A stretch of 62,696 nt of DNA from Thermovirgaceae bacterium (GCA_046542505.1 JBKHBH010000002.1:1-62696), one strand, 5' to 3'; positions 1,956 through 59,134 are shown, counted from the first letter of the stretch. Program-made: numbers and translations. The notes: a model not told the origin generated them from the letters alone.

Positions 1956-3036
1956 GAAAGCCTGGAAAACAAGAATAGCCATTGCCGCCGGAGGAACAGG
2001 AGGACATATTGTTCCTGCCATAGCATTCGCGGAGTGGGTGAACCGTTACCGCAACAAGACGGAGGTACGTTTCTATTGCGGGTCACGCCCTCTGGAAAAA
2101 GAAATTTTCTTCTCCCGGGAAATCGTCCCGAAAGTGCTTCCTGTTGACGGCTCGCCTCTTTCAGGTACCATATGTCGCCGGGTTGTTCGTTTCTTTGGGC
2201 TTTGTGTCTCGACATTCCTTTGTCTGCTGGATTTTGTATCCTGGAGACCTGATGCCTGCCTTCTTTTTGGCGGCTACGCTTCTTTGCCGGCCCTTCTTGC
2301 CGCACGGATGCTTCGGATTCCGGTGCAAGTACACGAACAGAACGCCGTGGCAGGGAAGGTCACCCGCCTTGCTGCATCCTGGGGGGTACGGGTTTTTTCC
2401 GGATGGAACACCTGCAAGGGACTCGAGGCCGGGGCTTTTCATCATACGGGGATCCCTACGAGGTTTTTCAGGTATTTGCCCCTGGAGGACGCATGGCTTA
2501 AACTCAACTGTAAGGGGAAACCGCCGGACGGGCCGAAGGTCCTCGTCATCGGCGGATCCCTTGCAAGCAGTGCCATCAGCTCCGTAGCGCAAAAATTGGC
2601 TGAATTGCCACAATTTCGCAGTTGGGTTTTTTTTGTGCTCGGTGGAAAGCAGGCCACGAAAAGAACGGATAACGTCATTTTTGTTTCAAGAACGTGGGAC
2701 ATGAGTCCTTTATATTCTCTGGCGGACTGTGCAATTTCCAGGGGGGGAGCTTCGACACTCGCTGAACTGGCCTTGTTCGGAATCCCCTCGATTGTTGTGC
2801 CCTGGAAGGAAGCCGCCGACGATCACCAGACGGAAAACGCGAAAATTTTCGCCGACATGGGCTATGGAGACACATGGGACGACAAGGTCGACGACCTTGT
2901 CACCCTGGCGGAGCGCCTTCAGAAGTTGCCCGCCCTCGGGTCGCGGATATCGACGGATGATCTCGAGCAGGTATCATCATGTGTCGGAAAAGCCATATGG
3001 GACGGGGTATTCCCTGAAGGGAGATGTTGCCGTTGA
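1930..3036 (+). CDS. murG: Lipid II GlcNAc transferase MurG (start uncertain, 1921 or 1930)
   Basis: GGTGGH, FGGY, HEQN, SRGGASTLAE, DDHQTENA motifs. Confidence 0.93.
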   Translation: MGPRKLPHKKAWKTRIAIAAGGTGGHIVPAIAFAEWVNRYRNKTEVRFYCGSRPLEKEIFFSREIVPKVLPVDGSPLSGTICRRVVRFFGLCVSTFLCLLDFVSWRPDACLLFGGYASLPALLAARMLRIPVQVHEQNAVAGKVTRLAASWGVRVFSGWNTCKGLEAGAFHHTGIPTRFFRYLPLEDAWLKLNCKGKPPDGPKVLVIGGSLASSAISSVAQKLAELPQFRSWVFFVLGGKQATKRTDNVIFVSRTWDMSPLYSLADCAISRGGASTLAELALFGIPSIVVPWKEAADDHQTENAKIFADMGYGDTWDDKVDDLVTLAERLQKLPALGSRISTDDLEQVSSCVGKAIWDGVFPEGRCCR

Positions 3037-56122: not shown

Positions 56123-56152
56123 ATTTTTTTGGACCATCCAAAAAGTCTCCGG

Positions 56153-56182
56153 TTGCCCGGTACAGCCGGCTCATTGCATAAT
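56153..56182 (+). promoter_or_regulatory. Putative nikR promoter
   Basis: TTGCCC-18 nt-CATAAT. Confidence 0.45.
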
Positions 56183-56242
56183 AGAAAGGGCACGTTCATG
56201 GTCTATTCCAGCGTTGCTCACCCCTTCAAAGGAGGGTCTTTT

Positions 56243-56650
56243 ATGGAAAAGCTCGCCCGATTCAGTGTATCTCTTCCCGAGTCGCTTCTTGAGGAGTTCG
56301 ATGCCCGGATCGAGACCACCGGGCATAAAAACCGTTCTGAAGCACTACGATACCTCATAAGGGACTTCATCGCCGAATCTTGCTGGGAATGTGGCACGGA
56401 AAGCGTCTACGGAACAATTACCATCACTTATGACCACCATTCCCATGACACCGCCCAGGAGCTGACGGCATTGCAGCATGATTTCGGTCATATCATCATC
56501 TGCTCCACCCATGTGCATATAGATCACGACCACTGCTTCGAAGTCATCGTTCTCAGGGGTGCCTCAAAAGAAGTAAAACGCTTCGTCGAGGCCCTTTCGG
56601 GGCTCAAAAGCGTTTATTCAACGAAACCGGTATTTACCGTTCTTATATAA
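56243..56650 (+). CDS. nikR: Nickel-responsive transcriptional regulator NikR
   Basis: RFSVSL ribbon-helix-helix, NRSEA.R, YDHH, QHD, HVHIDHDHC.E Ni ligands; GGAGG RBS. Confidence 0.95.
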   Translation: MEKLARFSVSLPESLLEEFDARIETTGHKNRSEALRYLIRDFIAESCWECGTESVYGTITITYDHHSHDTAQELTALQHDFGHIIICSTHVHIDHDHCFEVIVLRGASKEVKRFVEALSGLKSVYSTKPVFTVLI

Positions 56651-56693
56651 AAGGCCGGGAAGGCCGCCCGACGGGCGGCCTTCAGATGCCTCA
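56651..56693 (-). promoter_or_regulatory. SECIS-like stem-loop (could alternatively or also be the terminator between convergent genes)
   Basis: UGA, 18 nt, then a loop starting GU; 11-bp perfect upper stem GAAGGCCGCCC/GGGCGGCCTTC; lower stem GAGGC/GCCTT. Confidence 0.5.
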
Positions 56694-56858
56694 CCCCGAG
56701 GGTGCGCAACCGGATTTCTTCCCCACTGATTCCCCTTCAAGGAGAATGAGAGTTCGTGAACGGCACTTCGGGCATTTCACATCGCTTTCCGCTGCAGCCA
56801 AGTGAAATTCGTTTCCGCATACGGCGCATCGGAAAAACCGTTCATCGGTCTGTGGCAT
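56691..56858 (-). CDS. Small zinc-ribbon protein (FmdB-like); possible selenoprotein extending to 56682 or 56643
   Basis: CAVC...CPKC ribbon, AAGGAG RBS, tail GCAPSG-TGA-GI-TGA. Confidence 0.8.
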   Translation of the reverse strand: MPQTDERFFRCAVCGNEFHLAAAESDVKCPKCRSRTLILLEGESVGKKSGCAPSG

Positions 56859-56881
56859 GGCGTTCACTCCTTTCAATATCC

Positions 56882-56901
56882 ATTATACCCCAATAGGGTA
56901 T
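56882..56901 (-). promoter_or_regulatory. CsoR/RcnR-family operator-like dyad overlapping a TATAAT -10 box
   Basis: - strand ATACCCTATTGGGGTATAAT, about 25 nt upstream of the Zn-ribbon start. Confidence 0.6.
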
Positions 56902-57848
56902 CAAAGGTTTCCAATGGTGGCAACCATCACGGCCTTTATGGTGTGCAGCCTGTTCTCAGCCTCGTCAAAGACCTTCGACTGCTTCGATTCGAAAACGTCT
57001 TCTGTTACCTCGTTGCCTTTTACCGCCGGCAAACAGTGCAAAAAGATCGTGTCATCCACTCCGGTGGCGGCCATCAGTTCAGCATTGACCCTGTAGGGCT
57101 CGAGAAGGGAGATCCTTTCCTGCAGCTTGTCTTCTTCTCCCATGGAGGCCCAGACATCCGTATAAATGGCGTGGGCTCCCTGCACCGCCCGTTTCGGATC
57201 TTCGTAAAAGGAGATGGATCCTCCCATTTCACCTGCAAGGGCCTTGCACTCCTCCACCAATTCGCTTTGAGGGAAAAGCGATTTCGGGGAGGCGATGGCA
57301 AAATGCATTCCCAGTTTTGCCGAGCCGATCATCAGTGAATTGGCCATATTGTTTCTACCATCGCCAAGGTAAACAAGGCGGCTCCCTTTCAATGATCCGA
57401 AATTTTCTTGAATTGTCAGGAAATCGGCAAGGATCTGCGTCGGATGGTACTGGTCCGTCAAACCGTTCCAGACGGGAACACCGGCATACTTCGCCAGTTC
57501 CTCCACAGTATCCTGACTGAACCCCCTGAACTGGATGCCGTCGAACATCCTGCCAAGCACTCGTGCCGTATCAGCCACGCTTTCCTTGTGTCCAAGCTGA
57601 ATATCGTTCTTGCCTAGATACTCCGGGTGCCCTCCCTCGTCCACACACGCCACGGTAAAAGCACACCTGGTCCTCGTCGAAGGTTTTTCGAATAGGAGGG
57701 CAACGCTCTTGCCTTCCAGGGTGCTGCCCTTGATGCCCGCACGCTTTTTCCTTTTCAACGATGCTGAAAGGTCCAGAAGATACTGGATCTCTCCAGAGCT
57801 GAAGTTCCTCAACGTGAGAAAATGACGTCCCTTGAGATTGATAGCCAC
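56901..57848 (-). CDS. arcB: Ornithine carbamoyltransferase (catabolic context)
   Basis: [29 protein letters not shown]; directly downstream of arcA. Confidence 0.95.
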
Positions 57849-57889: not shown

Positions 57890-59134
57890 TCAGAAGCTTG
57901 TTTCGTCTCTTGCCATTGGCATGCTCATGCATCGGGGACCGCCGCGGCCCCTTCCAAGCTCTGCGCCACGGATTTCGTAAACCTTGATGCCATTCTCGCG
58001 GAGCACGCGATTCGAGGAAACGTTCCTGCGGTATGTCACGACGACGCCGGGCGCGATCGCCAGGGTGTTCGTTCCGTCGTTCCACTGGTCCCTGGCCGCT
58101 GCGATGGGGTCCCCTCCTCCAGTCTCGATGAAACGTACCGTTTCCAGCCCAAGGGTTTTCTTGATGCAGGTCTCGAGATCCCTGTGTTCCCGAATTGAGG
58201 CAAGTGTCCCGTCATCCCTGTATTGCAATTCCCAAATTCCAATGGAGTGCCGTGCTTCCGGATACACTGTAAAGGCATCATGATCAACCATGGTAAATAT
58301 GGTGTCAAGGTGCATGGCAGACCGTGTTTTTGGGATATCCACTGCAAGAATCGTCCTCACCGACGTGTTCTGCGAAAGCCTGTTTCCCACGATCTGAACT
58401 GCCCCGGCAGCCGTTCTCTGGCTGATGCCTATGGCTACCACGTCTTTGGAGAGAACCAGGACATCCCCTCCTTCAATATGGTAGGGGTAGGCATCCCTGC
58501 TCTGGTTCCCGAAAAACACTTTCAGGTTTTTGAAATAGGGGTGGTGTTCAAAGATATATCTGCCGTAAAGGGGTTCTTTTTTTCTGGCGTCAAAATTCAT
58601 GGCACTGATGATGACCCCGTCCTGAACAAAGCTGAAGGGATCACGCTGGAAATACAGGTTCGGAAGGGGCCGGATCAGAAAATCATGAAGATCCATGGAG
58701 TTCAGCACAAGACTGGTACAGGGTTTCAGCAGTTCGAGCGCCTCTCCCTTGGTAAGCCCGGCAATCAGGTCCTCTGCAAGTTCGTCTGCGGGTATTTCCA
58801 TGAGTTTTTTTTCGAGGGTCGTCGCCAGCGGAATGTCAAGGGCCTCCAGGGCAAGCACATCATCAAGCAGGTCTCTTCTGATTTCCTCGTTCTTCAGGAT
58901 AAACGAAAGACAATCCTTGAAATAGACGACCTCGGTCCCATTGTCGCGAAGCAGGTCGGCAAAGGCATCATGTTCCTTCTGGGCCTCCTCGACCCAGATA
59001 ATGTCATCAAAAAGCAGCTCGTCCTTGTTGTCGAGGGTTAGCCGCGCAAGCTCCTTCCCCGGCCTGTGCAGCATGACCCTCTTCAATCGCCCGATTTCCG
59101 ATGTTATGCAAAAGGCATTCTGCTTCTCTTCCAT
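57890..59134 (-). CDS. arcA: Arginine deiminase
   Basis: SEIG.L..V..HRPG.E, LLFDD, PNLYFQRD, IEGGD, MHLDT, GRGRGGPRCMS. Confidence 0.97.
   Translation of the reverse strand: MEEKQNAFCITSEIGRLKRVMLHRPGKELARLTLDNKDELLFDDIIWVEEAQKEHDAFADLLRDNGTEVVYFKDCLSFILKNEEIRRDLLDDVLALEALDIPLATTLEKKLMEIPADELAEDLIAGLTKGEALELLKPCTSLVLNSMDLHDFLIRPLPNLYFQRDPFSFVQDGVIISAMNFDARKKEPLYGRYIFEHHPYFKNLKVFFGNQSRDAYPYHIEGGDVLVLSKDVVAIGISQRTAAGAVQIVGNRLSQNTSVRTILAVDIPKTRSAMHLDTIFTMVDHDAFTVYPEARHSIGIWELQYRDDGTLASIREHRDLETCIKKTLGLETVRFIETGGGDPIAAARDQWNDGTNTLAIAPGVVVTYRRNVSSNRVLRENGIKVYEIRGAELGRGRGGPRCMSMPMARDETSF

Follow-up and report, generated by a model that had tools for sequence, protein, structure and literature searches.

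A well-supported predicted selenoprotein family of Synergistales zinc ribbons with selenocysteine third from the C terminus

How is an in-frame TGA read when a second one follows only two codons later? The question is raised by a small open reading frame (ORF) in a 62,696-nucleotide (nt) stretch of DNA from a Thermovirgaceae bacterium (GCA_046542505.1 JBKHBH010000002.1:1-62696). We refer to the whole of this stretch as the window; it is contig C65 of a 2.14 Mb assembly that is 93.5% complete. The ORF lies on the minus strand, starts with ATG at 56858 and codes for MPQTDERFFRCAVCGNEFHLAAAESDVKCPKCRSRTLILLEGESVGKKSGCAPSG before it reaches the first TGA (56693-56691). This is followed by GGC ATC, the second TGA (56684-56682), 12 sense codons and a TAA finishing at 56643. 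The original prediction, made from the sequence alone, was that gene callers shorten a hidden selenoprotein gene here, whose product would end either CAPSG-U-GI or, with both TGAs read as selenocysteine (Sec, U), in a longer C-x4-U-x2-U tail. Re-reading and folding the sequence gave the same coordinates for the ORF, both TGAs, the TAA and an 11-base-pair (bp) stem with a GUC loop that follows the first TGA.

The comparisons below make it highly probable that the first TGA encodes Sec in a 58-residue protein that ends Sec-Gly-Ile at the second TGA. The sequence evidence thus gives good support to a new selenoprotein family with one Sec, not two. The features on which this reading depends, including a predicted selenocysteine insertion sequence (SECIS), are as follows.

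56867..56872, minus strand: Shine-Dalgarno sequence AAGGAG, read from the sequence, 8 nt before the ATG
56685..56858, minus strand: predicted coding sequence of the 58-residue zinc-ribbon selenoprotein, from translation, alignment A1 and an AlphaFold model
56691..56693, minus strand: UGA predicted to be read as selenocysteine, residue 56, from the conservation of TGA among orthologues and its replacement by TGC in two Cys forms
56682..56684, minus strand: probable true stop UGA, whose last two bases, G and A, begin the SECIS stem; a stop of varying identity is always found two codons past the Sec codon
56659..56683, minus strand: predicted SECIS upper stem-loop (11-bp stem and apical loop GUC) from folds, spanning the stop codon and 3' untranslated region
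56651..56692, minus strand: extended hairpin with lower stem 56692-56688:56655-56651, folding at -30.6 kcal/mol for 45 nt
56643..56652, minus strand: U/A-rich tract UUUUAUAUAA, a likely intrinsic terminator tail; a terminator-like site is reported at 56672..56654 with tail CTTTTATATA

Reading of the two TGA codons

We searched for the read-through peptide in 61 genomes (that of the window and 60 relatives) from 10 families of one order and fetched the best 30 loci, which come from 14 genera in 7 families. The column of the first TGA holds TGA in 28 of these loci, L035 among them, and TGC in the other two (L049 and L051). Pooling the fetched loci with ten loci from a named collection (L055-L064) gave 31 distinct Sec genes; the named relatives are metagenome-assembled genomes (MAGs) of Thermovirgaceae, Synergistaceae and Aminobacteriaceae, which places the organism in the Synergistota. 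A second locus search, with a single protein, returned 16 loci, of which 6 (L065-L070) fall outside the selenoprotein family. Of 29 homologous genes, 26 have a tetramer resembling the Shine-Dalgarno sequence 5' of the start codon.

Among the 31 distinct orthologous genes codon 0 is TGA without exception. Codon +1 (GGC in 10 genes, GGA in 7, GGG in 6, GGT in 3, AGC in 3, TCC in 1 and GCC in 1) specifies Gly, through all four of its synonymous codons, or else Ser or Ala. Codon +2 (ATC in 9, ATA in 8, ATT, GTC and CTC in 3 each, and GTA, CTG, ATG, GGC and GGA in 1 each) specifies Ile, Val, Leu or Met, with Gly in 2 genes. Codon +3 is always a stop, divided among TGA (17), TAG (9) and TAA (5), and every gene has the ending U-x-x-stop, with Sec third from the C terminus; at this locus the ending is U-G-I-stop. 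The conservation of residues together with synonymous change at codons +1 and +2 indicates that these codons are translated, and a fixed TGA at codon 0 set against a freely varying stop at codon +3 indicates that only the second TGA is an ordinary stop. The hidden gene and the shorter of the two predicted endings are both borne out by this pattern.

Relatives that carry Cys at the same place point in the same direction. In the Cys forms L049 and L051 the tail is C-P-L-C-N-I-stop, to be compared with C-P-S-U-G-V-stop or C-S-S-U-G-I-stop in the shortest Sec forms and with C-P-S-U-G-V/I-stop in L034 and L040-L042. Cys and Sec therefore align residue for residue. Three more Cys forms, P0018, P0027 and P0028, are present in the protein database and end ...SCPLCNI. 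Both TGAs had been proposed to stand where the tail has Cys; this holds for the first, and the second is a stop.

The simplest alternative is that the first TGA is an ordinary stop, that the product is the 55-residue database protein and that the hairpin is a terminator common to two convergent genes. Databases do carry exactly this 55-residue form, TGA is the commonest stop in this genome (59% of the stops ending long frames), and the hairpin coincides with a reported terminator-like site that has a U tract. An ordinary stop would, however, be expected to vary in identity, as the second stop does between TGA, TAG and TAA, and it would leave unexplained the two synonymously varying codons and the stop that follow it in every gene, as well as the TGC of the Cys forms. 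Hairpin conservation, described below, also argues against it, and we consider an ordinary stop very improbable.

The hairpin and the selenocysteine machinery

The perfect 11-bp stem (GAAGGCCGCCC/GGGCGGCCUUC) is formed by pairing of 56683-56673 with 56669-56659. It starts inside the second TGA, 7 nt past the first UGA, and its apical loop GUC (56672-56670) places the G 18 nt after that UGA, as predicted, or at position 22 counted from the U. A 76-nt fold has a minimum free energy of -36.3 kcal/mol and a z-score of -3.66, a stability equalled by 1 of 200 shuffles. The predicted 5-bp lower stem forms in the 45-nt fold, with one G-U pair, and is reduced to 4 bp in the 76-nt fold.

A hairpin follows the UGA in every Sec gene, and 25 distinct hairpins were compared. 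All 25 have G at loop position 1 or 2, with GU in 24, and in every case the first loop base is +20 to +30 nt from that U of the UGA which serves as the origin of the count (the loops are GUC in 9, GUU in 5, AGUU, GUG, GGUC and CGUGU in 2 each, and GUA, AGUA and GGA in 1 each). The stems differ widely in sequence yet remain paired. In the 15 hairpins with three-nucleotide loops, two-sided compensatory changes occur at 7 of 7 stem pairs, and the covariation score is 0.844 as against 0.233 in shuffles, none of 500 shuffles scoring as high. In this stem test the weight is carried only by the changes on both sides and by the loop motif.

Controls bear on how specific this arrangement is. Only 43 of 2746 long open frames in the genome (1.6%) have a best hairpin whose loop begins at +20 to +30 past the stop with GU. 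Under the same rule, one Cys-form gene has no hairpin and the other has only a 5-bp hairpin without G at loop position 1 or 2. Established selenoprotein genes of the same genome are similarly arranged: the selD loop, GGC, starts at +21 and those of the two grdB copies at +22, compared with GUC at +22 in this gene. A published rule places the loop of bacterial SECIS elements 16-37 nt from the UGA (PMC10778597); loops at +20 to +30 with a G fit both this rule and the conserved apical G.

The sequence comparison therefore identifies the hairpin as a predicted SECIS element spanning the stop codon and part of the 3' untranslated region. Its apical part would be untranslated because the stop comes only two codons after the Sec codon. 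There is experimental precedent for this placement, as a bacterial SECIS past the stop codon is reported to function in Escherichia coli for thioredoxin reductase with a C-terminal Sec (PMC10778597). Termination cannot account for the conservation of the hairpin, since a U tract follows only 6 of the 25 hairpins by a strict rule or 8 by a loose one; the remaining 17 lack it even by the loose rule, yet the G loop at +20 to +30 is common to all. The original prediction had cautioned that the hairpin might be only a terminator, a caution that applies to the U tract in this window and not to most of the family. Here the hairpin probably ends the transcript as well as serving as a SECIS.

The genome encodes the full Sec machinery; many Synergistota use Sec. 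Genes for selB (370.7 bits) and selA (578.6 bits) are neighbours on contig C66, selD (345.3 bits), which has its own in-frame TGA, is on C74, and tRNA-Sec (76.3 bits) is on C43. All four components, the presence of which had been proposed as a check, score above curated cut-offs and lie outside the window. Other selenoprotein genes of the genome are as follows.

G000:C74:11170-12102, minus strand: selD (SGUAAK), SECIS hairpin loop GGC
C95:28135-28575, plus strand: grdA (CFVUTAA), hairpin less clear in a simple fold
C95:28641-29678, plus strand: grdB (STUGTCTRCG), SECIS hairpin loop GGC
C108:4489-5526, plus strand: second copy of grdB (STUGTCTRCG), SECIS hairpin loop GGC

Among the 28 genomes with a Sec-form locus, selB is present in 26 (E <= 1e-60); completeness is 82% and 86% for the two in which it was not found.

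These data also bear on the possibility that the UGA is leaky and is read by near-cognate decoding, with Trp, Cys or Arg inserted in place of Sec and the second stop acting as a back-stop. Such read-through would account equally well for the two conserved codons and the second stop. It would not account for a hairpin with the defining traits of a SECIS and the spacing seen in selD and grdB of the same genome, for homologues that carry Cys, the usual counterpart of Sec, or for selB in all but two, incomplete, genomes with the TGA form. We judge near-cognate read-through to be as improbable as an ordinary stop.

Several observations weigh against Sec insertion. The orthologues are kin within one order, and 31 TGAs in 31 genes overstates the number of independent events, the sources being 14 genera in 7 families. 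Each hairpin is the best-pairing one within a set range, which makes the percentage of paired bases partly true by construction. The hairpin in this window resembles a terminator, with a U tract following, and a permissive Rfam scan of 56560-56760 found no SECIS family (best E 0.79). Lastly, selB is also present in all three Cys-form genomes checked, which indicates that having Cys rather than Sec does not go with loss of the machinery.

Least probable is that both TGAs encode Sec and that translation continues through the predicted C-x4-U-x2-U tail and the extension RPPVGRPSRPFI as far as the TAA at 56643. In its favour, no other stop interrupts the frame before that TAA if both TGAs are read through, and close relatives of the same genus have a similar peptide there. 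Against it, the second position is TAG or TAA in 14 of the 31 genes, the peptide shared by close kin past the stop (RPPVGRP) is the translation of conserved hairpin bases, outside the genus the frame past the second TGA is full of stops and has no protein conservation, and the second UGA lies 12 nt before the loop G, short of the 16-37 nt rule (PMC10778597).

Decoding of UGA56 as Sec with termination at UGA59 most likely follows the ordinary bacterial SelB/SECIS route. SelB carrying Sec-tRNA(Sec) would bind the apical GU loop of the hairpin 3' of the UGA, the UGA at 56693-56691 would be decoded as Sec, and the ribosome would then add Gly and Ile before terminating at the second UGA (codon 59), in the foot of the same hairpin.

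Protein, family and possible function

The predicted protein has a CxxC...CPxC core, a strand LILLEGES, a short, basic linker GKK and the tail C-A-P-S-G-U-G-I, that is, Cys51-Ala-Pro-Ser-Gly-Sec56-Gly-Ile-COOH. In alignment A1, C11, C14, C29, C32 and the Sec column are invariant, and every Sec row has a Cys 2 to 6 residues before Sec, in the forms CxxU, Cx3U, Cx4U and Cx6U. An AlphaFold model made with a 29-row alignment has a zinc ribbon of three strands (6-11, 17-21 and 37-41) and a mean predicted local distance difference test score (pLDDT) of 73.8. Tail residues 48-55 are below pLDDT 50, and the C-terminal tail is predicted to be flexible.

The predicted FmdB-type zinc ribbon is recognizable only below the family thresholds. 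The protein scores 23.2 bits against the FmdB model TIGR02605 (cut-off 31.3) and 24.1 bits against Pfam PF09723 Zn_ribbon_8 (cut-off 34.4), and TIGR02605 has matches to 24 of 29 members at E <= 0.01, the best at 1.1e-6. Scores against other zinc-domain models are likewise below their cut-offs: Pfam HypA 24.3 bits (28.9) and hypA TIGR00100 20 bits (88.1), with the HypA-model matches covering just profile positions 70-105 of 112-116, RpoP NF001607 24.3 to 24.4 bits (89), and NF041197 12.3 bits (40) over residues 8-22 only. In the June 2026 release of NCBIfam no model reaches its cut-off for this protein or for the 29 family members scanned. A Foldseek search of the PDB gave nothing at E <= 0.001 and only generic zinc ribbons (MCM, RpoP and HypA). 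A profile search with A1 against 1.84 billion representatives was dominated by long multi-zinc-finger proteins (8-27 matched stretches), and its useful hits were small proteins that the other searches had already found. From sequence we class the family as an FmdB-like zinc ribbon, at sub-threshold level only.

Public records of the family, under the names hypothetical protein, RNA polymerase subunit P and HypA, are 51-60 residues long and end just before Sec; the database form of the present protein has 55 residues and is cut at the first TGA. Every public record examined is three residues short and has lost the probable active residue, and an annotation rule or hidden Markov model (HMM) would correct many records at once.

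The nearest precedents for the position of Sec are the UXX-star families NF041211 'gluta_UXX_star_2' and NF041212, which Table 1 of a 2026 review (PMC13188914) credits to Haft and Tolstoy 2025. As in the family described here, Sec is third from the C terminus (U-x-x-stop) and the SECIS necessarily lies across or behind the stop codon. The text of the review suggests the UXX-star Sec as a possible metal ligand (PMC13188914). UXX-star proteins, as known from the table and text of that review, differ in their core, 'gluta' being taken to mean glutaredoxin-like whereas the core here is a zinc ribbon. The NF041211 model has no match to this protein at E <= 10; its best match in the genome is G000:C35:23837-24022 (plus strand), at 32.4 bits against a cut-off of 100 and with no internal stop. 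In the literature searched, 'UXX-star' occurred only in the 2026 review, the available text of which does not contain the word 'ribbon' (PMC13188914). The same literature contained nothing relevant that joins selenoprotein or selenocysteine with zinc ribbon; the Haft 2023 and 2025 papers are outside its scope and may mention this family.

Zinc ribbons with Sec have been predicted before. Putative regulatory selenoproteins of the FmdB family (TIGR02605) were described from two marine reads of the GOS metagenome (Zhang and Gladyshev 2008, PMC2398784), and these too are small CxxC...CxxC zinc ribbons with predicted Sec; the relatives found here are FmdB-like with Cys-rich tails. The GOS motif is CxxU (U/CxxU and UxxU in later reviews), which we take to be a zinc knuckle rather than a tail, whereas all four knuckle Cys are kept here and Sec56 is in the tail. 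L034 and L040-L042 do have CxxU, but within the C-terminal tail. The families also differ in range, the two marine reads contrasting with a spread through the Synergistales. NF041197, a 'dual CXXC motif small (seleno)protein' that corresponds to hypothetical protein DW of the deep-Sep paper (PMC12013277), is likewise a small protein with two CXXC motifs and one Sec. Its Sec motif is GxU, in contrast to the C-terminal U-x-x-stop here, and the match between the two spans one knuckle only. For its two Synergistota test genomes, the accessible text of the deep-Sep paper gives no new selenoprotein (PMC12013277).

The HypA and RpoP zinc domains belong to the same zinc-ribbon fold class, and chains of both appear among the Foldseek rows, but all HMM scores are far below cut-offs and no Foldseek match reaches E <= 0.001. 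Mammalian thioredoxin reductase, like this protein, carries Cys and Sec on an arm at its C terminus, where only one or two residues follow Sec; the tail of the reductase reads Gly-Cys-Sec-Gly. Thioredoxin reductase is a large flavoenzyme with no homology to this family, and the likeness is limited to the arm and to SECIS placement, a bacterial SECIS in the 3' untranslated region being reported as sufficient for insertion in E. coli (PMC10778597).

Two functions can be proposed for the Cys...Sec pair, both by analogy, which itself counts against any firm assignment. Tentatively, the pair could serve on its disordered arm as a redox-active selenenylsulfide relay, a role favoured by the CxxU forms and by the habits of selenoproteins in general. 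A little more doubtfully, it could be a ligand for a soft metal or metalloid, towards which the variable Cys-Sec spacing, the Cys/His-rich tails of distant relatives (...CSCH and ...CHCH) and a neighbouring gene for NikR, a nickel-responsive regulator, lean. Against either function, the fold-search matches are generic zinc ribbons only, above E 0.04, and the neighbours of two paralogs in the same genome are housekeeping genes (for C126 and C31, MurJ, TsaD and GroEL; DsbD_2, DUF554 and PurA) that give no functional hint. The first of these paralogs, G000:C126:8692-8844 (plus strand), has a Cys-rich tail ...GSCSRPSCAGCAGCSIR (...CAGCAGCSIR among the tails listed) that ends at TGA. The second, G000:C31:27175-27315 (plus strand), is a small zinc ribbon without a Cys tail.

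Synergistota are already known as a selenoprotein-rich phylum (PMC5029168). To this the locus adds a well-supported selenoprotein family, previously unannotated, that would work by the ordinary mechanism. It also offers a natural example of a bacterial SECIS that spans the stop codon and extends into the 3' untranslated region; bacterial SECIS elements are placed within coding regions in the text of the 2026 review (PMC13188914). Given the ordinary mechanism and the U-x-x-stop families already described, specialists would find this a useful addition rather than a surprise.

Gene neighbourhood and related loci

The small gene is flanked in the window by the following genes.

56129..56650, plus strand: NikR, nickel-responsive regulator, convergent with the small gene (NF003381 137.3 bits, cut-off 105; Pfam NikR_C and RHH_1)
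56901..57848, minus strand: ornithine carbamoyltransferase, directly upstream (TIGR00658 438.3 bits), its ORF ending 42 nt before the ATG of the small gene
57890..59134, minus strand: arginine deiminase, first gene of a likely arcA-arcB-small gene unit (ORF; Pfam ADI on the part within L024)

The small gene is probably co-transcribed with the arginine deiminase operon. Its U tract overlaps the NikR stop codon (56648-56650, plus strand). The NikR ORF has 173 codons counted from a TTG, family models match it only from residue 39, and the homologues in relatives are mostly 135 residues long; the true start is probably the ATG near 56243 (MEKLARFSV...).

Across relatives, 15 of the 22 Sec loci examined have ornithine carbamoyltransferase as the adjoining upstream gene on the same strand (a count in which the upstream side of L038 has no usable ORF call), and in 2 more its position is occupied by arginine deiminase or arginase. 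Convergent NikR is downstream in 15 of the 22, including L047 and L048, where the upstream arginine genes are replaced. In L050 and L053 (genus g13, family f7) rubrerythrin adjoins the Sec-form gene, replacing both the arginine genes and NikR, and the two Cys-form loci adjoin radical SAM and ferredoxin-like genes. All of these surroundings are within one order and may reflect inherited gene order rather than a functional link.

The recurrence of convergent NikR in 15 of the 22 loci, the Cys/His-rich tails of relatives and the database name HypA are the grounds for a more specific proposal, in which the Cys...Sec tail would ligate nickel or another soft metal and the protein would act with NikR as a metal-handling partner that depends on selenium. 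In [NiFeSe] hydrogenases, Sec is a ligand of nickel. We consider such a partnership unlikely.

Of the loci outside the selenoprotein family, L065-L067 (Synergistaceae MAG contigs, with matches at 3001, 3001 and 1600) are of a paralog type, MH.YRCASCG...LIHIEGE, with long, Cys-rich tails that end at TGA, or at TGA TGA in L065. L068-L070 are unrelated zinc ribbons. In a genome of family f5, two TGA-containing family matches (G040:C1:1676138-1676320 and 1676473-1676631, minus strand) are about 150 nt apart and may be a tandem pair of such genes.

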